This document shows positions 22,764 through 36,507 of a stretch of DNA of 64,000 nucleotides, one piece after another; the first letter of the stretch is position 1, and each line of letters opens with the position of its first letter. The notes below the pieces were generated by a model. That model was not told the origin of the DNA. It did not search any database and worked only from the letters and a program-made list of their open reading frames with translations. A program made the position numbers and the translations under genes. The stretch is taken from the sequence record PV252060.1; one strand, 5' to 3'. The DNA comes from Escherichia phage nithesis.

Positions 22764-25700
22764 TTGAACAGGAATCATGCTATGTCAACATTTGACCGTC
22801 TGGCAGGTTTCGCAGACAGCATCACTACTGCTAAGCAAGTCGATGTCTCTACTGCAACCTCTCGGAAACAAGCTGAACAAGGGCAAAACCCTTTCCAATT
22901 AACTCCTCAGAATGCCTACCAATTACAGGCAGGTCGTGCTGGTAACTTAGGTGCTGGTGCATTTGACCTAGGTTCTATTCAGGCAGATTTTACTAATGCC
23001 TCTCCTCTTGAAATCATAAACAAATATGGCAATGAGCAAGGAATGGACATTCTCAATGCCCGTGTCAATGCAGCTAATGCTGTTCGTCGTGATTTAACTA
23101 AGAGTCGTACATATGGTGAAGCACTTGGTGATACCCTCTCTGGTGTTGGTCTTGGTGTTGCTAATACCCTTGGGGGCATTGCTGCTCTTGGTACAGGTTT
23201 GGTCAATGATAATGCCGGGGCATCCATTGCTTCCGGTCTTGACTGGTTAAACAAAGGTGTACACAACCTACAGTCTGATGCATTGAATGCTCGTCGTAAT
23301 GTAGTACAGAACCAGAACGTAATATCTGCACAGGAAAATGAGAAACTCTATAAGCAAGATGTTGCTAAAGGAGAAAGTGAACTCGTTGCATCCTTATCTC
23401 GTATTGGTCGTGATGCTTATGATTCTGTTGCTAATACTTTGTCCAATGGCATGGCTGCTACAGATGGACTGGCTGAGGGTGTTGGTTCTCTGTTTACTGG
23501 TGGCCCACTTATCCGTGGTGTATCTGCGCTCGGTAAAGTAATGGTAGGTGGTGATAAAGCTGTTAAGGGTATTACCCTAGCTGCTGAGTTAGGTTCACGT
23601 CCTGCACGTACTGCATTAGCTACTGGTCATGTTGCTGCACCTGCTATAGCAATTGGTGGTATGGAAGCTGGTGGTGCATACCAACAGACTGCTAATGAAA
23701 TTATGGAAATGCCATTCAGTGAGTTGGCTGCTAAATCTCCAGTATACCAACAGCATATTAAAGATGGTTTATCTCCTGAAGAAGCACGTCGTCAGACTGC
23801 ATCTGAAACAGGTATCACTGCTGCTGGCTTAACTGCTCCGGTTGCTGCTCTTACTGGTCCACTGGTATCCAAGTTTGAACTTAATCCACTTAAAGTAGGT
23901 TCATTGGCTGGTGCTGGTTCTAACATGCTGCGTGAGACTGTAGAAGAAGGTATCCAGTCTGGTACAAGTCAGTTTGCACAGAACAAAGCAATTCAGGGTA
24001 ATGTAGATGCTAATCGTGATTTGCTTAAAGGTGTGGGTGAACAAACTGGTCTTGGTGCATTGTATGGCTTTGGTTCTGCTGGAGTTGCTCAAGCTCCTGG
24101 TGCAACTGTTAAGGCTGCTGGTGCTGCCGTTGGTCCTGCTGTACGTACTACCCTGGCTGGTGCTTCTCTGGCTGGTAAGGCATTAGTAAAAGCTGCCTCC
24201 CCTATTACTAACATTCTGGTTCAACGTGGGGAAGAAATAGCCAAACGTAATGAACAAGCATCCCCTGTATCAGATGCTACGGTTAACGCTGCTGCACAAG
24301 AAGCTACTGCTCAGGCAGAACAAGCACAAGCAATTGTTCAGGAAGCAGTAGATGCAATGGATATTTCTCCTGAAGAGAAAGCTGCTGCTACTCAGTATGC
24401 TGCTGACTTAACTCAGGCGATGAAGTTCGACCCAGTAGAACTGGAACAAGCTAGTCCTGCAATCCATGAAGCTGTTTCTGGTTCCACTAACCGTGTTGAA
24501 GCTATTCAGAAGATGGCTGACTTGGTTAATACTGCTGAAGACCCTAATGTTCAAATGGAAGCTGCAATCCAGATGTATGACAACATCATGTCTATGGATA
24601 GCTTCATTAACCGTGACCCAGGTGCATTAGCTAATCTGGAACAAGGTTCTCCTGCTGCTAATATTGTTGACCAGTTCTCTGGTCTGATGGCTAACGTTCA
24701 GAATACACCAAAGGTACTTCGTGCATTCCGTGCTATTCATTCTATGATTCAGGAACAGGCTGAAGCAGGTAAACTGAAAGCTACTGAGGAAGCCAACCAA
24801 GCTCAGGCAAACAATATTGCTATGGCTGCTGATATGTCTCCAGAAGTACTGGATGCAGATTCAGTGAACATGGTTCTGAAACATGCAAGTGAAGGTAAGA
24901 TTACACTGGGGAATCGTCAGCGTGCTGCCCTGCAATCTGCTGCTGCTCTATTGCAAGGAGCACGAGAATTTGACGCTAAAGCAGAAGAACTAGGCTTACG
25001 TCCTCAAGACATTGTTAGTAAACAGATTAAAACCGACGAATCTCGTTCTAATGAAGGCCAGTACTCTGCGTTGCAACATGCTAAACGCATTCGTTCTGCG
25101 TACAACTCTGGTAACTTCGATTTGGCTTCCGCTTATCTCGACGACTTTATGAAGTTCGCCCAGCACATGCAGAATAAGGTCGGAGCGTTGAATGAGCATC
25201 TGATTTCTGGGAATGCGGATAAGAATAAGTCTGTCCATTATCAGGCTCTTACTCCCTCCCGTGAATGGGTACGTAGTCGTACTGGCCTCGGTATCAATCC
25301 GTATGATACCAAGTCTGTTAAGTTTGCCCAGCAAGTAGGACTGGAAGCCAAGACCGTAGCTGATATTGCTAACGCACTTGCTACGGCTTACCCGGAGCTT
25401 AATGTTTCTCATGTGAAAGTTACCCCATTGGATTCACGTCTGAACAAGCCTGCTGCCCAGGTAGTTAAAGAGTTCCGTCAGGGCAATCTTGATGCTGCTC
25501 AATCCCAACAGACCAATGAACCAGTGAATCAGGTTGATGAAACTCCTGTTACGAAACAGGAACCAGTTACCCCTACTGTACAGACTAAACCCTCTGTTAG
25601 TGAAGCTGTTAAAACAGAACCTACTATTAAAGAGTCTAAACCACAGACTGTAAAAGAACCTGAGAATCAGTCTGAAAAACAGGATGTCATCGAGAAGTCT

Positions 25701-28700
25701 ACTGAATCTGAAAGGGATACTTATGTGAAAGAGAATACTATTTCACAGGAAACCCTTAATAAGTATGGCGACCGTAAAGAGAGTCCTTGGCTCTTCGCAG
25801 ATGGTACTGTTGTTGGTTCTAATGGTGACCATATCAGTCTGTCCGATGTGTTTGGGCATGATGGTTATCGCGATATGTCTATGGACACTGGTGCTGTTCG
25901 CTCTACCTTCTACAAAGGAAGTGAGCAACCATTTGTATCATTGCAACTGTTTGATAATCAGAAGCTGACTGCTGAACAATTCAATACTGTTCAATCATTC
26001 GTAGAAGCAAACAATGCACTGATTCAGATTGGTGTAGATATGTCTGGGCGTAATACCAATAACGTTGAAAAAGAAGAAGTATCACTGGCTCAACTGAAAG
26101 CAGACTATACCGTTGGTGGTAAACCTCTATCGGAAATGGAAACAGTGTTCCCTGTCTATAACAATGACAAAACACCGAACCAGTTCCTTAAAGCATTTTC
26201 TCTGCCAGAAGAACCTAAGTCCCGTACCATTGGTTCTGAGTCTCCTTTGACTGATGTTAAGAAAGCACTGTCTTCTGCTGCTCGCTTTGAAGCATTCACT
26301 CAAAAAGAAAATAACGCTCTCACAAATGATGTGATTAAGCGTTATCAGGACTTGTTTGATTTTGGTGAAACTTTGAAGACTACTCTGTCTGACCGTCTGG
26401 CTAAGTTCCTTGCTAACAAGAACGTTGGTAAACGTTTTGTAGAAGGTACTGAGGCTAACCGTTGGGTAGGTGGTAAGTTACTTAACATCGTTGAGAAAGA
26501 TGGTGATACCTTTAAGTTCAATGACCAGTTGTTAGAGACTGCTGTACTTGCTGGTCTGCAATGGCGATTAACTGCTACACAGAATGCTGCTGTTAAAGAC
26601 GTGAAAGACGTAGCTGCTATTACTGGTGTAGAAGCATCTCTGCTACCAGAAGGCATTTTGGCTGACTTCGAAAATGCTCAGACATTGGTTGAAGCTACTA
26701 ACTCACTGGCTCAAAAGATTGAATCTTATTGGGGTTTAAATCGTAATCCTAATGCACCACTGGGTTATACCAAGGGTATCCCAATGGCAATGGCTACAGA
26801 GATTCTGTCTTCTCTCATTGAAATGGGTGAAGTTAAAGAGTCCATGCTGGATGTATCTGAGATTGACCCAGAATCTAACAAGACTGTTGGTCTGTATACC
26901 ATTGAGAAGTTAGATGATAACGATGCCATTAACAAATTCCCTACTGCTATTGAAGAAGCTGTTCTCGTAGAACCAGTAGAGAAATTGTACCTGGGTGATG
27001 ATATTCCTTCCGTGGCTCAAACTCAGTTACGTAACCCGGCTGTTAAGAATACCCCGGAACAGAAAGCTGCTCTTAAAGCTGAGCAGGCTACTGAGTTCCG
27101 TGTACATATGCCGATGGTTAACTTCTACGAAGCATTAGGTCGCGACAATATTCTGGAATTGATGGGTGCTGGTGCTCTTAATCCAGAATTGTTGAATGTG
27201 AATACTGCTAAGTCTCTGGAAGGTAAAAACCTGTCAGTGTCTATGGCATATGATTCTTTGTTTGGTGTAATCAACCAGATTAAGGAACAAGAGAATGGTC
27301 TGGATACACCTATTCACTACGGTTACAACATGACCCGTGTAGGTCGTATGCAGATGCTTGGTAAGAACAACCCACAGTCCAGCAAGTTGGTTCGTGAAGC
27401 AATTCTGCCAACCTTCTCTACTATCGACTTGAGTAATGAAAACAGCCAAACGTTCTCTGATTTCCAGTTAGGTCTGGCTCAGGCATTGGGTATCAAAGTT
27501 CATAAAATGTCCCGTGAAGTTATGTCAGATGAGCTGACTAAAGCTCTGGAAGGTAAACTGAAGCCTGCTGTTGATATGATGGTTGAGTTTGATAAGTCTG
27601 GACACTTACCTACCAATGCAGTGGATATTCTGAAGACTTCTTTGGGAAGCGATAAATCATTCGTAGCTCTTATGGCTCTTATGGAATATGCCCGTTATCT
27701 GAATAGTGATGACCGTGCCAACTTTAATACCCCACTGTACGTTGAAGCCGATGGTGTAACCAATGGGCCAATCAACGCAATGGTATTAATGACTGGTGGT
27801 AAGTTCACATCAGACTGGATTAAGAATACTGCTAAGGGGGGTTTGTTCTTTGGTAAAGCTGGCAAGACTATGAACGAGCATCATTCGCATGAGGACAGTG
27901 TTGACCTGTATGAAGCATCCACTAATAATCTACAACAGGCACTGAATGAATTACGCAATACTTACCGTAACAACGTTCCTGTTATGAACCAGATGAATCA
28001 TCTCCAGAAATTAATGGATTTGTTCATTAAAGACTTCAATCTTAATGAAGATGGTACTCTGGACCTGAAACGTGGTATTGCTAAAAACCCACTGACTATT
28101 ACCATCTATGGTTCTGGTGCTCGTGGTATTGCAGGCAAGATGGTTAGTGCAATTACTGATGTCATCTATGAACGCTTTAGTGACGTTCTGCAAGCTCGTG
28201 CTGCTGACCCTAGCATTTCTCCAGCTATGGCTATGTTTGGTAAGGAGGCTGCGTCTGAGGCCGATGCTCAGGCTATGCTGGATACTTTCCTTACTTCTAT
28301 GGAAGCACTGACTGGTAATGTTCCGGTTATGCGTAAAGGGGAGTTGTCTATTCAACAAGTAGAAGGTGCTCTGACTGGTAAGTTAAATCCCCAGAAGTTT
28401 ACTGTATCTGGGAATGCTCTGAAGAACTTGCAGGAGAATATGCTCCATCTGTTCGTTGAACCAATGCGTACTGGTATCCGAAATACTGTTGGTGAGGGTT
28501 TGATGCATTCTACTGAGAATTTGCAGAAGGCTACTCAGATTCAATCTCTGGTATTGCAGGATATGTTCCAGCAAGCAGTACAGGCTAAGCTGGCAGAAAA
28601 AGAAAAAGACCCAACGTGGAAAAAGGGTGATTTCTTAACACAGAAAGAACTGAATGAAATCCAGAATAGCTTAGCTCCACTGGCTCCAATGATTGAGACT

Positions 28701-31700
28701 GGTTCACAAACTTTTTATATTGCAGGTAGTGAGAATACTGATGTTGCTAACCAGGTTCTGGCTACCAACTTGGATGACCGTATGCGTGTGCCAATGAGTA
28801 TCTATGCTCCGTCACAGGCAGGTGTTGCAGGTATTCCATTTATGACCATCGGTACAGGTGATGGCATGATGATGCAGACCCTTTCTACTATGAAAGGTGC
28901 TCCAAAGAATACCCTGAAAATCTTTGATGGTATGAACATTGGTATCAATGACATTACTGATGCAAGTCGTAAAGCTAATGAGGCTGTATATACTTCCTGG
29001 CAGGGGAACCCTATCAAGAATGTTTACGACTCCTACGCTAAGTTCATGAAGAATGTAGACTTCAGCAAACTGTCTGATGAAACCAAACAGGCTATTGCCA
29101 AGTCTGCTCTGGAATACGACCAGCGTGAGGGTGCTACTGATGACCTGTTACGTGTTGGTGCTGAACAGATTGAACGTAACCTACGTAACATTGCTCTGGG
29201 TGTAGATATTCGTCACAAGGTAATGGACCAGGTGCAGGTCACTGTTGACCAGATGGCTGCTGTTGGTGCTCCTTATGTGAACAACGGTAAAATCTCTCTG
29301 GAAGGCCTTACTGTAGACCAGCAAGTAGCTAAGCTGAACGAACTGTTTGATGCTGAATTAAACAAGCGTCGTGATGCAGTGCGTGCTACTAAAGCAGAAC
29401 CAGTAAAAGAAGTACCTGCTATGGAACAGTTTGGTCGTGTACTGAAGTCTGGTGTACGTCTGCTGTCTAATACTGCCATTGCTAAACTGGCTAAAGAGAT
29501 GTCTCCTGAACAGCAAGCAGTATTGAAAGAAATACAGAAATCCCTTGCTGCTAAAGACTATAAAGTTGTTTATGGTACACCTTCTCAACTGGATGCCTAC
29601 GCTATTGAGAAGAATATTACTCGCCCAGCACCAGAAGACATTGAAGCTGCCGAAGCAGGTAATGCATATGGCTGGACTAACTTTGAAGATAAAACCATCT
29701 ATTTAGTTACCCCTTCCTTAGAGACTCTGGTTCATGAATTGGTACATGCTTCTACTTTTGAATCTGTACTGGCTCACTATGAGGGTACTCCTAATGAAGC
29801 AGTCCAGAATATTGAAGACCTGATGAACCAGTTCCGTACTCTGGATGTTAAGGATGAATCTCCGGTAGTACGTGAAGCATATGCTGATGCACTCAATACC
29901 ATTAATGGTCACTTGTCTAATGGTTTTATTGAACCAGCAATGGCTAAAGCTGCTGCACTGAATGAGTACATGGCTTGGGGTTTAACCAACCGTGAACTGA
30001 TTGGTAAGCAGAAGAAAACTACTGCACTTAAAACTATGGTTCAGGCTGTATATGAAGCAATCAAGCGTCTGGTATTCGGACGTAAGAAAGCTCCGGCTAA
30101 TGCAGATGATATGTTCTCTGGTTTACTGTTTAACTCTGCTGTAGTAATGCGTGGACAAGCTCCTACTGCTGCTGTAGCCAAAGACACTACTCTGTTCCAT
30201 AACAAAGCATATGGTGACAATACTCGTCTGGAAGAGCTAGGGAAAACCTTCGATAAGCTGATTACTGACTACATTGGTTCAGAACCAGTACAGCAAGTAA
30301 TTCGTAAAGGTAAGTTCTCTGATGCAGTAGTGAATGCAACTAAAGTAACCCGTGATGTTCAGGCTCATGGCTTCACCATGAATATGCAGGAACAACGTCT
30401 CTTTACTAACATTGTTGCTGCACTAGCTACCGAGGCTGCTATTAATCCAGCTGCTCTGGCTCGTGCACAGGAATACTACACACACGTTACTAAGAACCTG
30501 ACCGTCGAAGCATTCATGGCTGACCCAGATAGTACTAACCCTGCTGACCGTTATTATGCACAGCAGAAGTTCGATACCATCATGGGTGCTAACAACATTG
30601 AGTTTGATGCACAGGGTCGTTCTTCCTTACTGCCTACCTTTGTAGGTCTGGCAATGGTAAGTGAGGAAGTACGTAAGGTACTGGCTGACATTCCTGTTAT
30701 GAAAGCAGATAAGAAATCTGGCAATACTGTTGATGCAATGCTGACTAACATCGGTACTGCTGCAATGGCTAGTCTGAATGCTCGTGTAGCAGGTGATACT
30801 AAAGCTACTAACGTACAGGAAGGTATGGATGCACTGGCTCAGACAATCATGCAGACCAGTCTTAATGCAGAGTCTTTCTATGATTCAGTTGCTACCCCTA
30901 CCGGTAATGCTATTGACCGTGCTAACCAGTATCTGGTGGATTCTATTGATGTACTGTCTACCCGTGCTTTGGAAGGTGCTCGTGAAGTTGCAGCTAATAC
31001 CAAGAACCCACTGGTTAAAGGTGCTGCTCATGCTGCACAACTGGTAGCTGCTATTGCTACAGAGAAGAATGGTTCAATCGTAGCCGAAGGTGTTATGACT
31101 GCAATGAACCAGGGTAAAGTATGGCAACCTTTCCATGACCTGGTTAATGACATAATCGGTCGTACTAAGAGCAATGCTTCTGTATATGACTTGATTAAGG
31201 CAGTACGTGCACAGGTACAGGCTGACCGTCAGCAGTTCCGTGAACACTTGCCTACCACTATCGCATCTAAGTTCAGCCGTAAGCTGACTAATGATGAGTG
31301 GAAAGCAATGCATACCGGTATGGGTAAAACTGACTTAGCTGTTCTGCGTGACACTATGTCTCTGGATGAAATCCGTGACCTACTGTCTGACCAGAAAATT
31401 GTTGACCGTGAGGTTAATAAACTGGAAGCAGATTTGCAGAAACAAGCAGGACGTAACTGGCCTCTGATTAATCGTAAATCTAAGCAACTGGCTCAGTACA
31501 TGATTAATGGTACTGTTGGTAATAACCTGCTGCGTAATGCTACTGCAATTTCTCGTTTGCTGGGTGAACGTAAGACTACCAGTTCTATCGTAGATGTAGC
31601 TCAACTGGATAAACTCATTACCCTGTATGCACTAGAAGCAATGAATAAGACTGACCGTGAGATGTTATCTTCACTGGCTCAGACAGAAATTGAAGGTATG

Positions 31701-33536
31701 GACTTTGCTACTTCTTATCTGGTTGGTCAGCGTAAAGATGAAATGGCTAAAGCCAAGTCTGATAGCCGTGCAACCATGAACCAGTACAAAGGATATATCC
31801 CTGGTGAGAACAAACAGGGTGTTAACCTGATTGTTGCTGAAGATAGTCAGTTTGCTGATTTGATTGAGAAATCCTATGTACGACTGGGCACTTATCATGG
31901 TAGCTCTGCTAACCGTGGTCCAGCACGTAGCTACTACTTTGCACCAGTACAGGCACAGGCTCCATTCTCACAGGGTATCCTACAGAACGTTCGTAATACT
32001 GCTAGTGGTGTAGACCTTGGCACAGGCTTTACGATGGGAACCATGGTAGCTGGTCGTATTACTGACAAGCCTTCCGTGGACCGTATTACTAAAGCACTGG
32101 CTCGTGGTGAACGTGGTAATGAACCACTGCTGCCTGTATATGATGCTAATGGTAATGTGGTTGCTTATGAGCAATCCATTGACCCTAACATGCTGAAGCA
32201 TATTGAAGGTGAGAACCATCTTGCTCGTGCAATTGGTGTATGGCGTGGTCGTCAGGTGGAAGAAGCTAAGGCTCAGCGTTTCAACGATATGCTGATTGAA
32301 AACCTGCATAGCATGTATGAGAACGACCTTAAGATGTCTGCCTCTAATAAGTCCCAGTACGTTAACCTTCTTGGTTCTAAACTGGACCCAGTGACTGCTG
32401 ATGCACTTAAGCTGATGAACAGTGAAACTCGTCAGAAAGCAGAAAGTTTGTTTGGCCCGGGTGAGCTGTGGGTGCGTCGTGACATGCTTAATGATGCTCT
32501 TGGTTATCGTGCAGCTTCTGTTGGTGATGCCTGGTCTGGTAATTCTCGATGGTCCCCAGAAACACTGGATACCTTTAAGAAAGCTATGCTGGGTGTATTC
32601 GGCAACCGTGCTTACAAGTACGTAATGGGTGGTGAGAACCTGGTTCAGAACTTAGTTAAAGAAGCTAAGACCCTGATTGTAGTTAAGTCAGTAGTCGTAC
32701 CTGCTGTTAACTTCTTGGCTAACCTTTACCAGATGGTTGCTCGTGGTGTACCTGTTAAGAACATTGCTAAGAGCATCCCACAGAAAACTGCTGAGATTAA
32801 TCAGTACCTTAAATCTCGTCTGCGTCAGGTAGATGCAGAAGCAGAATTACGTGCAGCTACTAACCCGAACCAGATTCGTAAACTTAAGGCTGAGATTCAG
32901 TCCATCTCTGATAGTCATAAGCGTTTGAGTATCTGGCCTCTGTTGGAAGCTGGTGAGTTCTCCTCAATTGCAGATGCTGGTATTGGGCGAGATGATATTC
33001 TGATTACTGAAGGTAAACTTCACGAATACATGGAAAAGCTGGCTGATAAGTTGCCTAAGTCTGTACGTAACGCAGGCCGTTATGCACTTATCACTAAGGA
33101 TACTGCTCTGTTCCAGGGTATCCAGAAGACGGTTGAGTACTCTGACTTTATCGCTAAAGCAATCATCTATGATGAACTGACTCAGCGTAAAGGTAAGACT
33201 CGTGAAGAAGCACTTGGACGTGTAACGGAAGAGTTTATTAACTATGACCGTCTGCCTGGTCGCTTCCGTGGGTATATGGAAAGTGTTGGTCTGATGTGGT
33301 TCTACAACTTTAAGATTCGTTCTGCAAAAGTTGCAGTGTCCATGATTCGTAACAACCCAGTTCATGCTGCTATGGCTATGTTGGCTCCAACTCCTACCAT
33401 GTTTGGTAACGTTGGTCTTCCTATTCAGGACAACATCTTTAGTATTGCTGCACAAGGCAACCTCGGTTACTCCTTCGGATTCGGTCAAGGCTTACGTGCC
33501 CATACTCTGAACCCTTGGCTCAACCTCACTAACTAA
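22764..33536 (+). CDS. virion-encapsidated giant RNA polymerase (N4 vRNAP-like)
   Basis: 3590 aa single ORF, the hallmark of N4-like phages; central region has T7-like polymerase motif B-like LKRGIAKNPLTITIYGSGARG near nt 28081. Confidence 0.85.
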   Translation: MNRNHAMSTFDRLAGFADSITTAKQVDVSTATSRKQAEQGQNPFQLTPQNAYQLQAGRAGNLGAGAFDLGSIQADFTNASPLEIINKYGNEQGMDILNARVNAANAVRRDLTKSRTYGEALGDTLSGVGLGVANTLGGIAALGTGLVNDNAGASIASGLDWLNKGVHNLQSDALNARRNVVQNQNVISAQENEKLYKQDVAKGESELVASLSRIGRDAYDSVANTLSNGMAATDGLAEGVGSLFTGGPLIRGVSALGKVMVGGDKAVKGITLAAELGSRPARTALATGHVAAPAIAIGGMEAGGAYQQTANEIMEMPFSELAAKSPVYQQHIKDGLSPEEARRQTASETGITAAGLTAPVAALTGPLVSKFELNPLKVGSLAGAGSNMLRETVEEGIQSGTSQFAQNKAIQGNVDANRDLLKGVGEQTGLGALYGFGSAGVAQAPGATVKAAGAAVGPAVRTTLAGASLAGKALVKAASPITNILVQRGEEIAKRNEQASPVSDATVNAAAQEATAQAEQAQAIVQEAVDAMDISPEEKAAATQYAADLTQAMKFDPVELEQASPAIHEAVSGSTNRVEAIQKMADLVNTAEDPNVQMEAAIQMYDNIMSMDSFINRDPGALANLEQGSPAANIVDQFSGLMANVQNTPKVLRAFRAIHSMIQEQAEAGKLKATEEANQAQANNIAMAADMSPEVLDADSVNMVLKHASEGKITLGNRQRAALQSAAALLQGAREFDAKAEELGLRPQDIVSKQIKTDESRSNEGQYSALQHAKRIRSAYNSGNFDLASAYLDDFMKFAQHMQNKVGALNEHLISGNADKNKSVHYQALTPSREWVRSRTGLGINPYDTKSVKFAQQVGLEAKTVADIANALATAYPELNVSHVKVTPLDSRLNKPAAQVVKEFRQGNLDAAQSQQTNEPVNQVDETPVTKQEPVTPTVQTKPSVSEAVKTEPTIKESKPQTVKEPENQSEKQDVIEKSTESERDTYVKENTISQETLNKYGDRKESPWLFADGTVVGSNGDHISLSDVFGHDGYRDMSMDTGAVRSTFYKGSEQPFVSLQLFDNQKLTAEQFNTVQSFVEANNALIQIGVDMSGRNTNNVEKEEVSLAQLKADYTVGGKPLSEMETVFPVYNNDKTPNQFLKAFSLPEEPKSRTIGSESPLTDVKKALSSAARFEAFTQKENNALTNDVIKRYQDLFDFGETLKTTLSDRLAKFLANKNVGKRFVEGTEANRWVGGKLLNIVEKDGDTFKFNDQLLETAVLAGLQWRLTATQNAAVKDVKDVAAITGVEASLLPEGILADFENAQTLVEATNSLAQKIESYWGLNRNPNAPLGYTKGIPMAMATEILSSLIEMGEVKESMLDVSEIDPESNKTVGLYTIEKLDDNDAINKFPTAIEEAVLVEPVEKLYLGDDIPSVAQTQLRNPAVKNTPEQKAALKAEQATEFRVHMPMVNFYEALGRDNILELMGAGALNPELLNVNTAKSLEGKNLSVSMAYDSLFGVINQIKEQENGLDTPIHYGYNMTRVGRMQMLGKNNPQSSKLVREAILPTFSTIDLSNENSQTFSDFQLGLAQALGIKVHKMSREVMSDELTKALEGKLKPAVDMMVEFDKSGHLPTNAVDILKTSLGSDKSFVALMALMEYARYLNSDDRANFNTPLYVEADGVTNGPINAMVLMTGGKFTSDWIKNTAKGGLFFGKAGKTMNEHHSHEDSVDLYEASTNNLQQALNELRNTYRNNVPVMNQMNHLQKLMDLFIKDFNLNEDGTLDLKRGIAKNPLTITIYGSGARGIAGKMVSAITDVIYERFSDVLQARAADPSISPAMAMFGKEAASEADAQAMLDTFLTSMEALTGNVPVMRKGELSIQQVEGALTGKLNPQKFTVSGNALKNLQENMLHLFVEPMRTGIRNTVGEGLMHSTENLQKATQIQSLVLQDMFQQAVQAKLAEKEKDPTWKKGDFLTQKELNEIQNSLAPLAPMIETGSQTFYIAGSENTDVANQVLATNLDDRMRVPMSIYAPSQAGVAGIPFMTIGTGDGMMMQTLSTMKGAPKNTLKIFDGMNIGINDITDASRKANEAVYTSWQGNPIKNVYDSYAKFMKNVDFSKLSDETKQAIAKSALEYDQREGATDDLLRVGAEQIERNLRNIALGVDIRHKVMDQVQVTVDQMAAVGAPYVNNGKISLEGLTVDQQVAKLNELFDAELNKRRDAVRATKAEPVKEVPAMEQFGRVLKSGVRLLSNTAIAKLAKEMSPEQQAVLKEIQKSLAAKDYKVVYGTPSQLDAYAIEKNITRPAPEDIEAAEAGNAYGWTNFEDKTIYLVTPSLETLVHELVHASTFESVLAHYEGTPNEAVQNIEDLMNQFRTLDVKDESPVVREAYADALNTINGHLSNGFIEPAMAKAAALNEYMAWGLTNRELIGKQKKTTALKTMVQAVYEAIKRLVFGRKKAPANADDMFSGLLFNSAVVMRGQAPTAAVAKDTTLFHNKAYGDNTRLEELGKTFDKLITDYIGSEPVQQVIRKGKFSDAVVNATKVTRDVQAHGFTMNMQEQRLFTNIVAALATEAAINPAALARAQEYYTHVTKNLTVEAFMADPDSTNPADRYYAQQKFDTIMGANNIEFDAQGRSSLLPTFVGLAMVSEEVRKVLADIPVMKADKKSGNTVDAMLTNIGTAAMASLNARVAGDTKATNVQEGMDALAQTIMQTSLNAESFYDSVATPTGNAIDRANQYLVDSIDVLSTRALEGAREVAANTKNPLVKGAAHAAQLVAAIATEKNGSIVAEGVMTAMNQGKVWQPFHDLVNDIIGRTKSNASVYDLIKAVRAQVQADRQQFREHLPTTIASKFSRKLTNDEWKAMHTGMGKTDLAVLRDTMSLDEIRDLLSDQKIVDREVNKLEADLQKQAGRNWPLINRKSKQLAQYMINGTVGNNLLRNATAISRLLGERKTTSSIVDVAQLDKLITLYALEAMNKTDREMLSSLAQTEIEGMDFATSYLVGQRKDEMAKAKSDSRATMNQYKGYIPGENKQGVNLIVAEDSQFADLIEKSYVRLGTYHGSSANRGPARSYYFAPVQAQAPFSQGILQNVRNTASGVDLGTGFTMGTMVAGRITDKPSVDRITKALARGERGNEPLLPVYDANGNVVAYEQSIDPNMLKHIEGENHLARAIGVWRGRQVEEAKAQRFNDMLIENLHSMYENDLKMSASNKSQYVNLLGSKLDPVTADALKLMNSETRQKAESLFGPGELWVRRDMLNDALGYRAASVGDAWSGNSRWSPETLDTFKKAMLGVFGNRAYKYVMGGENLVQNLVKEAKTLIVVKSVVVPAVNFLANLYQMVARGVPVKNIAKSIPQKTAEINQYLKSRLRQVDAEAELRAATNPNQIRKLKAEIQSISDSHKRLSIWPLLEAGEFSSIADAGIGRDDILITEGKLHEYMEKLADKLPKSVRNAGRYALITKDTALFQGIQKTVEYSDFIAKAIIYDELTQRKGKTREEALGRVTEEFINYDRLPGRFRGYMESVGLMWFYNFKIRSAKVAVSMIRNNPVHAAMAMLAPTPTMFGNVGLPIQDNIFSIAAQGNLGYSFGFGQGLRAHTLNPWLNLTN

Positions 33537-34124: not shown

Positions 34125-34505
34125 TCAGATTGTACAACCACCACCGTCACAGGTGTTGTTTTCTGCAAATGAAGCCAGAGCCTTAGCAGTCTCTTCTTTC
34201 TCGTGCAGTGCCTGACGTAGCAGGTAACCTTCTAATTCCCAAATCTTATTGAATGCATTTTCATATGCATACTGACGACCCTTCTGTTCATCATAGATAG
34301 CAGGGTCTACGCAAGCAGATACACCTTCAATTTTGAATCCATTTTCCAGGATGATAATGCAATGGGTTGTCAGACCCAGATTAGCCAAATCATCTGCTGG
34401 AAGTGCAGAAGGATCAACGAATGCAGACTTCACTGCGTCAGCACCATTGAAAAAGTAAATGCTCTTAATCTTAGCTTCGATTGCTTCTTTACTTACTGTT
34501 GCCAT
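34125..34505 (-). CDS. conserved phage protein (N4 gp49-like family, tentative)
   Basis: About 126 aa; recalled similarity in character to the Phage_gp49_66 family and matching position; start moved to internal ATG with AGG upstream. Confidence 0.35.
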   Translation of the reverse strand: MATVSKEAIEAKIKSIYFFNGADAVKSAFVDPSALPADDLANLGLTTHCIIILENGFKIEGVSACVDPAIYDEQKGRQYAYENAFNKIWELEGYLLRQALHEKEETAKALASFAENNTCDGGGCTI

Positions 34506-34565
34506 TATTAACCTCATAGAGTGGTTTGAATTTGTACTTAAACATGATTGTGCTTATTAATACTC

Positions 34566-34595
34566 AAATAAAAAAGTCCCTCCGAAGAGGGACTT
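34566..34595 (-). terminator. intrinsic terminator downstream of tRNA-like cluster
   Basis: On the minus strand: AAGTCCCTC-TTCG-GAGGGACTT hairpin followed by TTTTTATTT. Confidence 0.6.
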
Positions 34596-34717
34596 AGTAG
34601 CTTTAACTTAGCTAACGAGGCTAGGTCTCTTAGTATATATTAGTAGAGTGCCGGACTGTCTCACCGGCATTGTCTTTAGAGTGCAATGCAATCAGGACTA
34701 TGTTCTCTATTAAAAAG

Positions 34718-34791
34718 TACCCACTACTGGATTTGAACCAGTGACCTTCCGATTATTAGTCGGTTGCTTTCCCCGTCTAAGCTAAGTGGGC
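34718..34791 (-). tRNA. tRNA gene, anticodon uncertain (apparent AAU with mismatched anticodon stem)
   Basis: Minus-strand cloverleaf: acceptor GCCCACT/AGTGGGT, D-arm GCTT..AAGC, T-arm ACTGG-TTCAAAT-CCAGT; anticodon arm ACCGA-CUAAUAA-UCGGA has an A-A mismatch; no encoded CCA. Confidence 0.55.
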
Positions 34792-34796
34792 ATAAA

Positions 34797-34872
34797 TGGT
34801 TACCCGGACAGGATTCGAACCTGCGTCCTAGTTGGTTTACTAGTGGGGCTTTACCACTAAGCCTACCGGGTA
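34797..34872 (-). tRNA. tRNA-like gene with non-canonical 6-nt (or 8-nt) anticodon loop
   Basis: Acceptor TACCCGG/CCGGGTA, D-arm GGCT..AGCC, T-arm GCAGG-TTCGAAT-CCTGT, encoded CCA; the only good anticodon stem (CTAGT/ACTAG) leaves a 6-nt loop AAACCA. Confidence 0.5.
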
Positions 34873-35315
34873 TTAATGAGTGAGTCATGCCAGACTTTAA
34901 CTGGCTCCTTCTTCGCAATCCTTACATACCCCTACATAATTATTGCGTTAAGCTTTTTTGTTTAAGTTTAAATGAAGGCGTTCTTGCTGACTCATAATAG
35001 AGTGGGCGTTTGACGAATGACTAGTTCGTTACTACCCGTTTGCCATAAGTACCTGGCGACTTTGGTTTGAGGTGGGAGTCCGAGTCCTGTACAGCCTTAC
35101 CGTTCACACATTGGCAGCGTATCTAGAATAGCACTTCCGGCAACTGGATTTAACTGTTACACCCCAAATCTGGTAGGGGCGTCCAGAGGTCTCATCTGGT
35201 ACTTACGCCGTCGTATGGTTACGCCTTACCCCCATAATTCTTATAATTCAGAGTAGCACTGCTCCATGTTTGGCCTTTGAACTCCGGGATGGATTAGTGC
35301 AATGCTACTTTGAAT

Positions 35316-35439
35316 TGGTTACCAGTGAAGGATTCGAACCTCCGGTTGGAGTCTATAGCTTACCGCAGCAGCCCTCCAATCTAGCGGTGTCACACTTAGT
35401 CCAAACTTGAACATGTCAAGCCATCTCGTGCAACTGGTA
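35316..35439 (-). tRNA. tRNA-like element with elongated body (124 nt; insertion-containing or degenerate tRNA)
   Basis: Canonical 3-prime module (GGAGG-TTCGAAT-CCTTC, acceptor ACTGGTA, A, CCA) but the only complementary 5-prime acceptor strand (TACCAGT) lies about 120 nt upstream; internal hairpins present. Confidence 0.3.
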
Positions 35440-35441
35440 AT

Positions 35442-35507
35442 TGGTTCCGGCGTCTGGACTCGAACCAGAACACTCATGCCGTGCACGACACTAGTACCTA
35501 CACCGGA
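35442..35507 (-). tRNA. short tRNA-like element (66 nt, apparently lacking a normal D-arm)
   Basis: Acceptor TCCGGTG/CGCCGGA with one G-U pair, T-arm TCTGG-TTCGAGT-CCAGA, encoded CCA; only 31 nt between acceptor and T-stem. Confidence 0.3.
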
Positions 35508-36507
35508 ATTAATTGCCAGGGATTCCACCTGGCTCCATCTGTTTTTATAGTCACTCAGATATCGTCTGGACTTGTTGTGGTGGCCGGTACTGATCTCCGA
35601 CATAAGGCGCTTATTCGGCGGCGTCGAGCTTGCTTATTCGCTTGAGCCATCCTCGTGAGTCAGCCACGTCCCACTGCGCATCAGCCTGCGCATTCACCAC
35701 AACGGAAAGAGCACTTAACAGAAGATAGGTCTGATTGCCTCGGATGATTTCTCAGTAGCCTAAATGCTCTTACCTGTTGTGTGCCCATTATTAATCACAG
35801 CGGGCCACTGCGCCGAATTTGCTTACAAGGAGTCGGAAGACCTTGCTGACTTACAGGCTATTACGCCGCCATCAGAATAACATCATCGTTTGCATTTATG
35901 TTATTGGTTCGTTTCTAAAAAAACCGCATAATCGCTACGAAAACTATCGGGGAGTGCACTGAGGGTTAGCTAGACCTCCACAAACTGGGATATCCCTATG
36001 TTTGGTTAGATGGGCTTACCTGTATTAGCGCACTAACACAGTCTTAATCACCACTCTCGCACGATACAATGCACTCTCCGATAGTTCATAATAGGAGGGA
36101 GGAGACGAATCCCCCCTTTATACCCTATATTGCATGTAAGATCTAACAGTTCGATGTTGTAGACGGATAGGCTTATACTTACCGGCATTAAACTCCCGCC
36201 CCCTTAGTGGGCTGGGTTAATTAGTATGCTCAACATGAGCGGTTAGTTGATAAGGTATCTGAAGCCTTATCCAAAAGATACTAACCTTTGGGATATAGCC
36301 TAAGATTCAGAAATGGCCCCTATAGGAGAGGCCATTGATTAACCCTAATGTTGCTTTACATTTTCTGAGATAACCCATTCTTAAAATAGTCTGTCTGACG
36401 GATGGGGGGCCACCCCTAGCGTCAGTGCCATACGGCAAAGATTAAGTTAAGAAAGGTTATGATAGGAGTTCCTATCTCAAAGGATTCTAACAGAACCCTT
36501 CACGATA

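Follow-up and report, generated by a model that had tools for sequence, protein, structure and literature searches.

A tRNA-Ile and three conserved, probably non-decoding tRNA-shaped RNAs in the tRNA/noncoding RNA island of an N4-like coliphage

Phages are usually taken to carry tRNA clusters for codon supply and, in a more recent view, to replace tRNAs that host defences have cleaved. Here we analyzed a stretch of 64,000 nucleotides (nt) of Escherichia phage nithesis (sequence record PV252060.1; hereafter, the window), a G7C/ECBP1-type N4-like coliphage that was assigned to Gamaleyavirus and has PE007, ECBP1, and Bp4 as its best matches. Four tRNA-like elements, E1 to E4, lie side by side on its minus strand (Table 1). 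We found that E1 is a genuine, slightly unusual phage tRNA-Ile, and that E2, E3, and E4 derive from tRNAs. All three have kept an acceptor stem of 7 bp, discriminator A73, an encoded CCA, and a canonical T arm. They are very likely structured functional RNAs, have probably lost decoding, and are likely to undergo tRNA-type processing; that they act as mimics or decoys is a more tentative proposal. The explanation as a whole, a real tRNA next to three processed, non-decoding tRNA mimics, has in our judgment about an even chance of being correct. Functional statements on E1 to E4 are drawn throughout from sequence.

Four exact copies of the T-arm motif GGTTCRANTCC are present in the 64 kb, always on the minus strand and within 34729-35466; shuffled sequences gave an expectation of 0.17, and none of 100 shuffles reached four copies. 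A custom scan looked for a T stem of 5 bp around a UUCRANU-type loop, together with a 3′ acceptor strand that finds its 5′ complement within 220 nt. It yielded exactly E1 to E4, all 7 acceptor pairs and all 5 T-stem pairs being formed in each; the lengths are 74 nt (E1), 73 nt plus CCA (E2), 121 nt plus CCA (E3), and 63 nt plus CCA (E4). All four elements thus have the 7-bp acceptor stem, the 5-bp T stem with its UUCRANU loop, and a discriminator base; covariation backs both of these helices in E2 and E3 and, in E4, the T stem. A 7-nt anticodon loop with U33 on a 5-bp stem is found in E1 alone (CUAAUAA). In E2, E3, and E4 the terminal ACCA runs into A/U-rich sequence and the T loops are canonical (UUCGAAU, UUCGAGU), and one repeat family (D1) picks up the 3′ halves of all four elements.

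In Rfam, E1 (64.8 bits) and E2 (40.7 bits) exceeded the gathering threshold of the tRNA family RF00005 (29 bits), while E3 and E4 did not match it even at E ≤ 10; bacterial Y RNA (YrlA) and other Rfam tRNA-like families gave no match at E ≤ 10 over 34400-36300. ARAGORN called a canonical tRNA, tRNA-Ile(aat), only at E1 and a "tRNA-???" at E2; E3 and E4 went undetected, and no transfer-messenger RNA (tmRNA) was called. A first-pass annotation of the sequence had noticed four minus-strand elements with T arms and paired acceptor stems, as the motif count and the scan bear out, and had held that none is a textbook tRNA, which is right for E2, E3, and E4 and wrong for E1. Its individual readings stood: the AAU anticodon and A-A mismatch in the anticodon stem of E1 (A27-A43, seen by ARAGORN and cmscan), the 6- or 8-nt anticodon loop of E2 (ARAGORN, cmscan, and folding), the acceptor stem of E3 that closes only at 124 nt (single-sequence folding and covariation), and the D-arm-less, 66-nt form of E4 (folding and covariation).

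Compensatory change in relatives was found in E2, E3, and E4. Across the tested helices (acceptor and T helices in E2), 15 pairs have changed on both sides and 96-99.7% of the alignment cells are paired, compared with at most 57% pairing and at most one double-sided pair in slid controls. The G·U pairs of E4 (U6·G67) and E3 (G9·U48, G19·U35, G98·U112) would be C·A on the other strand, which indicates constraint on the minus-strand RNA.

E2 has the body of a tRNA. Its anticodon stem, CUAGU/ACUAG, leaves a 6-nt loop that becomes 8 nt when the U-A pair opens; in the Rfam match the anticodon arm is unaligned, with cmscan skipping 18 nt. In nine variants the acceptor and T helices are 100% paired, with five compensatory pairs. 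MAFFT could not register the anticodon arm across subgroups, and the arm was judged by eye. In the Gamaleyavirus subgroup, E2 has 76 nt and the loop UAAACCAA or UAAACUAA (6 nt with the closing U-A pair formed); in SABI, SonariX, L026, and 05F01 it has 78 nt, a stem of CCCAG/CUGGG or CCCAA/UUGGG, and a 9-nt loop, RACUUAAGA; and in KP8 and BaqKoxi a 7-bp stem carries a GGCA tetraloop. The conserved 8- or 9-nt loop that would mark a frameshift suppressor was not seen: the loops of these subgroups measure 6/8, 9, and 4 nt and have unrelated sequences.

E3 is a larger, remodelled element. Its D-like loop holds an inserted hairpin, a 6-bp arm encloses a D-arm-like hairpin before the T arm, and a 12-nt linker stands where the anticodon arm is expected. 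Ten variants from Gamaleyavirus and KP8-like phages show 99.7% of cells paired and five compensatory pairs, compared with none in slid controls. Three adjacent acceptor pairs covary (UACCAGU/ACUGGUA, UAUCAGU/ACUGAUA, UACUGGU/ACCAGUA), as do one hairpin pair and one T-stem pair; helices 9-12/45-48 and 61-66/89-94 are invariant, and covariation is uninformative on them either way. Of the 124 positions, about 90 do not vary. The covariance model built for E3 (R2) scored true copies at 153-157 bits; next came class II tRNA-Ser, including that of N4 (30.3 bits), and then the E2 family (~27 bits). With the N4 tRNA-Ser, E3 shares GUUGnnnGAGA after the acceptor and CCGrAGGUUCGAAUCCUUCAC...ACCA. Given this shared sequence, E3 is most simply read as a remodelled Ser-type (class II) tRNA, whose variable arm would have been rebuilt around the D-arm-like hairpin. 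The long imperfect hairpin directly after E3 (Table 1) has AAUUC...GAAUU equivalents that follow E4 in KP8, IME11, and N4.

E4 is the shortest of the four. Eleven distinct variants, from isolates, IMG/VR, and metagenomes, have 98.4% of cells paired and five double-sided pairs (slid controls, ≤47% and ≤1). The 5-bp stem covaries at all positions, taking the forms GUGUC/GGCAU, GUGUU/GACAU, GCGUC/GGCGU, GCGUU/AACGU, and ACCCU/AGGGU; two pairs covary in the T arm, which is separated from the loop stem by 5-7 unpaired nt; and acceptor pair 6:67 is U·G in nine variants and C·A in two 05F01-type variants. The connector UAGGUAC is invariant, and its GG could stand in for G18-G19 at the elbow. The loop is GUGCAC (6 nt) in the window, N4, SPSP, and L023 and GUGCACA (7 nt) in IME11, KP8, and 05F01, and later compensatory changes have arisen separately in the stem of each form. 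When nothing but the connector and the T loop was fixed in a scan, every true E4 recovered had GUGCAC; Bas96, elsewhere, with GUGCCC, is the single exception. A covariance model of E4 (R1) scored true members at 84-97 bits and tRNAs at ≤25.

The 65-nt leader directly 5′ of E4 is nearly invariant in 19 variants, has a sharp 5′ boundary, and is missing from the 05F01 copy. Its hairpin has a paralogue upstream of E2 (Table 1); the pattern GGAGCCAG-N(5-11)-CTGGC occurs in the window at these two places only, with 0.02 occurrences expected. Neither the leader nor the GGAGCCAG hairpin was accepted as a general phage promoter, since the motif lies only upstream of E4 and E2 and gave no good sigma-70 match.

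E4 is 100% identical to phage N4 over 82 nt, and leader plus E4 are 97% identical over 135 nt, compared with 67-78% identity between the window and N4 in flanking coding DNA; within the 2-kb tract only discrete modules are kept between genera. E4 is unannotated in N4 and labelled "tRNA-Undet" or "tRNA-OTHER" in a few relatives' records. It is present in ~70 isolate genomes of Enquatrovirus, Gamaleyavirus, and Kaypoctavirus, and a myovirus, 05F01, carries both E4 and E2; the 05F01 copy of E4 is 98.6% identical to that of Klebsiella phage cp20, which indicates lateral transfer. E4 had no match in 185,579 bacterial and archaeal genomes, and neither E3 nor E4 had a BLAST match at E ≤ 1 in any of 5,426 E. 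coli genomes, so we rejected the idea that they mimic the sequence of a particular host tRNA. The cassettes are mosaic: St11Ph5 lacks E1 and E2, the module order is reversed in KP8, and allelic forms of E4 are shuffled among close relatives (the window has the N4 type and PE007 the IME11 type), so recombination certainly contributes. Between the window and 05F01, E4 is ~75% identical, with connector, loop, and T loop unchanged and all five stem pairs different. Transfer alone explains neither this retention nor the compensatory pattern. The literature searched held no description of E2, E3, or E4 and nothing relevant beyond genome announcements. Given the covariation, the conservation across genera, and the lack of both an Rfam family and a published description, E3 and E4 fit an unrecognised structured RNA family, one of the possibilities that the first-pass annotation had listed, and E2 an aberrant tRNA family.

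E1, by comparison, is a full member of RF00005. In seven variants its acceptor covaries between G1·U72/C2-G71 and G1-C72/U2-A71 with wobble intermediates, and its anticodon arm is invariant. The nucleotides that we take to be the E. coli Ile identity set (A73, C4-G69, U12-A23, C29-G41, and A35-U36-A37-A38) are all present, and position 34 is A, not G or lysidine. ATT makes up 60% of the Ile codons in the long open reading frames (ORFs) of the window, and TGT 63% of the Cys codons. E1 would supply a Watson-Crick reader for AUU, the preferred Ile codon of the phage, and its CCA end would be added by the host CCA-adding enzyme. Relatives carry a second A34 tRNA, tRNA-Cys with anticodon ACA and U73 (ECBP1, PBM-3, and UE phages), and a tRNA-Ala(CGC), both missing from the window; A34 tRNAs that match U-ending codons seem to be a habit of the lineage.

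For E2 to E4 we propose the following course. They would share a minus-strand transcript that runs up to the terminator at 34595-34574. RNase P would cleave each of them at the 5′ end, and RNase E and exonucleases would trim at the A/U-rich sequence after each CCA. RNase P requires only the coaxial stack of acceptor and T arm and the elbow, and an encoded CCA followed by A/U-rich sequence is the usual E. coli context for 3′ maturation by RNase E and exonucleases. Since E2 to E4 keep these features, they are expected to mature into stable, CCA-ended RNAs of 76, 124, and 66 nt. The mature RNAs may then occupy or divert a protein that recognizes the tRNA body, for example a defence or toxin enzyme of the host that targets tRNAs, or a factor that works in translation or processing; specificity may come from the motifs conserved inside the RNAs (GUGCAC and UAGGUAC in E4, the unvarying junctions in E3). 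Decoding is unlikely because loop length varies within the E2 and E4 families (4, 6, 7, 8, or 9 nt) and because a 12-nt linker replaces the anticodon arm of E3. Mimicry is favored because internal loops and connectors that RNase P can dispense with are nearly invariant and because the locus is a mosaic, laterally exchanged accessory region; the notion of a decoy is borrowed from phage tRNAs that escape host anticodon nucleases.

Several points weigh against this proposal. The D stem of E2 is only 83% paired, and the E4 acceptor has no double-sided change, with 5/7 pairs invariant. Each family alignment comprises 9-11 distinct sequences related by descent and recombination, and shuffle statistics are not probabilities; part of the E4 identity between N4 and the window could reflect recent lateral transfer, not constraint. 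For N4-like phages, the literature searched held no data on expression, RNA ends, or binding, and a stoichiometric decoy is not obviously effective against a catalytic nuclease. The nearly invariant GUGCAC palindrome and the 65-nt leader could instead serve RNA-RNA pairing or bind a sequence-specific factor that has nothing to do with mimicry. GTGCAC is not enriched in the genome (13 occurrences against 16.9 expected), which neither favors nor dismisses a kissing loop or genome-wide targets.

E2 to E4 might also be pure processing or stability modules that recruit RNase P and RNase E or protect 3′ ends, the released RNAs being functionless. Acceptor and T arm, the minimal RNase P substrate, are after all the best-kept common features, as the recovery of the four 3′ halves by D1 illustrates, and E2 to E4 are arrayed with real tRNAs and other RNA modules that need to be separated. 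However, RNase P has no need of the UAGGUAC connector, the GUGCAC loop, or the ~90 invariant positions of E3; E4 is conserved above the adjacent protein genes; and in 05F01 it lies 6 nt after a tRNA-Tyr, where extra punctuation is needless. We therefore consider this explanation unlikely, while recognizing that sequence analysis cannot separate the "decoy" of the first-pass annotation from its "processing signal". Another of its suggestions, specialised tRNAs, would make E2 a frameshift, doublet, or quadruplet reader, E4 a D-arm-less tRNA, and E3 a charged class II derivative. The GUGCACA form of E4 (IME11, KP8, and 05F01 type) does have a 5-bp stem and a 7-nt loop with U33, and would present a GCA anticodon; the SABI/05F01 loop of E2 includes CUUAAGA, like the Leu(UAA) anticodon loop; E2 to E4 all have A73-CCA and canonical T loops; and the cluster experiments with anticodons, as the other A34 tRNAs in relatives show. 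It is the unfixed loop length (6 or 7 nt in E4; 6/8, 9, or 4 nt in E2) and the missing anticodon arm of E3 that disfavor decoding. In addition, the E4 loop has C instead of a purine at position 37, and E4 carries A73, whereas the E. coli cysteinyl-tRNA synthetase determinant is U73, which the true tRNA-Cys(ACA) of ECBP1 has. We regard decoding as quite improbable.

E2 to E4 could also be tRNA pseudogenes in decay, which look conserved only because coliphages infecting the same cells have recently recombined. The high mosaicism of the region, the near-identity of the 3′ part of E3 to N4 tRNA-Ser, and the E4 alleles shuffled between close relatives would all suit such a history. Neutral decay, however, breaks helices, and the 15 double-sided changes seen here have kept them; the window and 05F01 copies of E4 have even changed all five stem pairs around an intact connector, loop, and T loop. 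The degenerate remnants that the first-pass annotation had allowed for are thus very improbable, and none of the elements is decaying debris. Finally, the conserved object could be DNA, such as a recombination hot spot, a protein-binding palindrome, or an origin or packaging signal, given that GTGCAC is a DNA palindrome and that the modules behave as recombination cassettes. This is barely credible, because the G·U pairs of the stems would not pair on the opposite strand, features specific to RNA (the T-loop consensus and the CCA end) are present, and GTGCAC is not enriched.

E1 to E4 are the distal part of a tRNA/noncoding RNA island of N4-like enterobacterial phages (Enquatrovirinae), in the gp47-gp48 interval. 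Here the homologues of N4 gp47 and gp48 are separated by ~2 kb without ORFs, and the four elements occupy this tract on the early/middle-gene strand, at the 3′ end of the early/middle-strand gene block. The array ends in a terminator, and N4 has an equivalent one ahead of gp48. A 3590-amino-acid ORF at 22764-33536, the virion RNA polymerase, is convergent to the array, with three small ORFs in between. The tRNA cluster of the subfamily occupies the same tract, in the order Asn-Ser-Thr-[E4]-Pro in N4 and SPSP and Asn-"???"-Pro-Gln-"Leu"...E3...E4 in KP8, whose genome paper reports six tRNA genes, four of them identified. Bona fide tRNAs accompany such elements in N4, KP8, BaqKoxi, SABI, and 05F01.

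Table 1. Coordinates of the RNA elements and associated features (window coordinates unless a locus is given)
Feature	Coordinates	Strand	Description
E1	34718..34791	minus	tRNA-Ile, anticodon AAU (A34), 7-nt loop CUAAUAA, conserved A27-A43 mismatch, A73, no encoded CCA
E2	34797..34872	minus	76 nt; normal acceptor, D, and T arms; encoded ACCA; anticodon loop 6 nt (AAACCA) or 8 nt (UAAACCAA)
E3	35316..35439	minus	124 nt; 7-bp acceptor, D-like stem GCAC/GUGU, T arm, A73-CCA
E4	35442..35507	minus	66 nt; acceptor, connector UAGGUAC, 5-bp stem with GUGCAC loop (6 nt), T arm UCUGG-UUCGAGU-CCAGA, A73-CCA
E4 leader	35508..35572	minus	Conserved 65 nt directly 5′ of E4; hairpin GGAGCCAGG-UGGAAUC-CCUGGC at 35515-35536
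Hairpin upstream of E2	34889..34908	minus	GGAGCCAG-UUAAAGU-CUGGC; paralogous to hairpin upstream of E4
Long imperfect hairpin	35245..35315	minus	AUUCAAAGUAGC...GCUACUCUGAAU, directly after E3 CCA; weak, sub-threshold mir-228 match
Intrinsic terminator	34574..34595	minus	9-bp G+C-rich stem then UUUUUAUUU; closes tRNA/noncoding RNA unit just before gp48-like ORF
Module Y	34645-34712	minus	Between E1 and terminator; conserved module 34704-34653; hairpin GCCGG-UGAGACAGU-CCGGC
Module X	35066-35168	minus	94-nt core (35166-35073) 97.9% identical to N4
Module W	35573-35715	minus	143-nt noncoding; 97% identical to T1-like Bas79, partial P1 matches
Block Z	35778-35948	minus	Tag frame 35861-35896; tag template 350 nt upstream in the same island
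tRNA-Cys(ACA)/tRNA-Ala(CGC) loci	L002:2696-2776, L002:3065-3138 (ECBP1); L003:2916-2995 (PBM-3)		

Directly downstream of the island, on the minus strand, lies a 130-amino-acid ORF (34125-34517) that belongs to the N4 gp48/gp49 neighbourhood. Its homologue in 24-32N (L014:1226-1618) carries the record label "anti-CRISPR protein", which hints that this neighbourhood may be an accessory or counter-defence region.

Other tRNA-like elements that did not receive normal tRNA calls were seen in relatives: one in N4 (L006:2597-2672) that sits in the tip of a long AAUUC...GAAUU hairpin, one in KP8 (L007:1414-1488) that was called "tRNA-???" and has 4/5 nt in its anticodon loop, and a mini element of ~50 nt with an acceptor stem and T arm in 05F01 (L013:1446-1500). 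An unrelated IMG/VR contig (L037:5576-5648) has another "tRNA-???" with a 6-nt anticodon loop, and tRNA-like genes without a 7-nt loop may be common in phage tRNA clusters generally. A 112-nt tRNA-like cassette lies just downstream of E3 in St11Ph5 and at the same position in 24-32N, which has no E3 (L014:2514-2628, L015:2603-2717); it has two T-arm-like hairpins (AGGG-UUCGAUU-CCCU and GAUGG-UUCGAUU-CCAUC) and a GUGCAC-containing hairpin.

E2 to E4 are part of a wider collection of exchangeable RNA modules, and block Z at least also imitates a component of the translation apparatus. Z has the pre-resume motif CAUAAAU followed by GCA AAC GAU GAU GUU AUU CUG AUG GCG GCG UAA UAG, which codes for ANDDVILMAA and two stops without a start codon, and the Rfam tmRNA models match it below threshold (29.4 bits, E ~6e-4) exactly over the pre-resume motif and tag. 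The tag varies as ANDDVVLMAA (in three synonymous spellings), ANEEAYLMVA, ANNETYLMVA, ANDDLMMVAA (P1), ANDSEVLMAA (PhaxI), and ANDNVFLAVA (Sf17); these synonymous and conserved variants indicate constraint at the amino acid level. The hairpin after the tag covaries, and the Bas79 and Sf17 copies of Z come with a sigma-70-like promoter of their own. Phage records of many families (N4-, T1-, Vi01-, and Felix-O1-like, P1/P7), 397 in all, contain Z without annotation, and it occurs in 670 of 5,426 E. coli genomes, mostly on plasmids; we found no description of it in the literature. Z has no acceptor stem or T arm of its own, and a search for a 5′ acceptor partner found none, so a full tmRNA was rejected. 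Judged by its sequence, Z is best described as a putative tmRNA mimic without a tRNA-like domain, and it may be more interesting than E2 to E4.

Module W is predicted to fold into several hairpins closed by GUGGUG/CCACCAC, with one U·G to C-G change in a hairpin; its ...GGCCACCA at 35590-35578 was rejected as a free CCA end, being part of this closing helix in the predicted fold. The closing stem of X covaries (GGGGUG/CACCUC, GAGAUG/CAUCUC, and GUGGGAUG/CAUCCCAC in N4), and X contains no ORF and has no Rfam match. The Y hairpin covaries with AUUGG/CCAAU in N4, loop and inner sequence being conserved; in other relatives, too, both sides of the hairpin and the outer flanks change.

Z is found in N4-like, T1-like, Vi01-like, and P1-like phages, and E4 and E2 in a myovirus. 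One could speculate, although we find this somewhat doubtful, that the island is a toolkit of translation-apparatus mimics, made up of the non-decoding E2, E3, and E4 and the tmRNA mimic Z and exchanged among unrelated enterobacterial phages. If so, these RNAs would be counter-defence effectors made of RNA, directed at the host systems by which tRNAs and stalled ribosomes are attacked or monitored and either neutralising or exploiting them. In a narrower variant, the 7-nt-loop form of E4 would be the first functional D-arm-less tRNA outside organelles. In any case, three conserved, phage-restricted members of a tRNA cluster appear unable to decode and are yet kept better than the adjacent protein genes; "tRNA-Undet" and "tRNA-OTHER" labels in phage annotations can hide real RNA families; and the presence of E4 in the model phage N4 offers an experimentally tractable system.

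Compared with canonical tRNAs, all four elements share the acceptor, T arm, and discriminator, but E2 has a 6/8-nt loop, E4 has a 6-nt loop and no D arm, and E3 extends to 124 nt without an anticodon arm. E4 resembles D-arm-less mitochondrial tRNAs, such as metazoan tRNA-Ser(AGY), in layout only: a connector of ~9 nt leads from the acceptor to the anticodon-like stem-loop in place of a D arm, and ~63 nt precede the CCA. In contrast to those tRNAs, E4 is a phage RNA in a bacterial host, has a 6-nt loop in the window and N4, and carries C at position 37. The tRNA-like domain of tmRNA is likewise a tRNA-shaped module without a decoding anticodon. Its alanine determinant is G3·U70, whereas E2 to E4 have C3-G70 (U3-A70 in some E3 copies), close on themselves, and show no linkage to an mRNA-like domain. 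For these reasons, and because N4 has E4 without Z, we rejected a split tmRNA composed of Z and, as its tRNA-like domain, E3 or E4; in Bas79, Z occurs without a tRNA call in a 2.5-kb locus (ARAGORN) and without a T arm from -400 to +900 nt. The T5 tRNA-Lys that acts against PARIS (PMC11455837) offers another parallel, in that it links phage tRNA-cluster genes and unusual anticodon loops to tRNA-directed defence; unlike E2 to E4, escape tRNAs of the T5 type are decoding-competent, have 7-nt loops, and replace cleaved host tRNAs.

The closest known counterparts of E2 to E4 are two stable RNAs of phage T4, RNAC (species 1, 139 nt) and RNAD (species 2, 119 nt), whose role is still unknown (PMC3014915, PMC9697503). 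A homology of E3 or E4 to them was rejected, as the R1 and R2 models reached at most 11.8 bits on the T4 locus (L034), over the T arm only, and E2 to E4 differ from both in their full 7-bp acceptor stems and encoded ACCA. Nevertheless, RNAC and RNAD are likewise small noncoding RNAs on the tRNA strand within a phage tRNA cluster, are close to E3 in size, and, in the case of RNAC, end in a tRNA-type T arm (CCGGG-UUCGAAU-CCCGG). Together with RNAC and RNAD, E2 to E4 point to a recurring class of phage tRNA-shaped effector RNAs.

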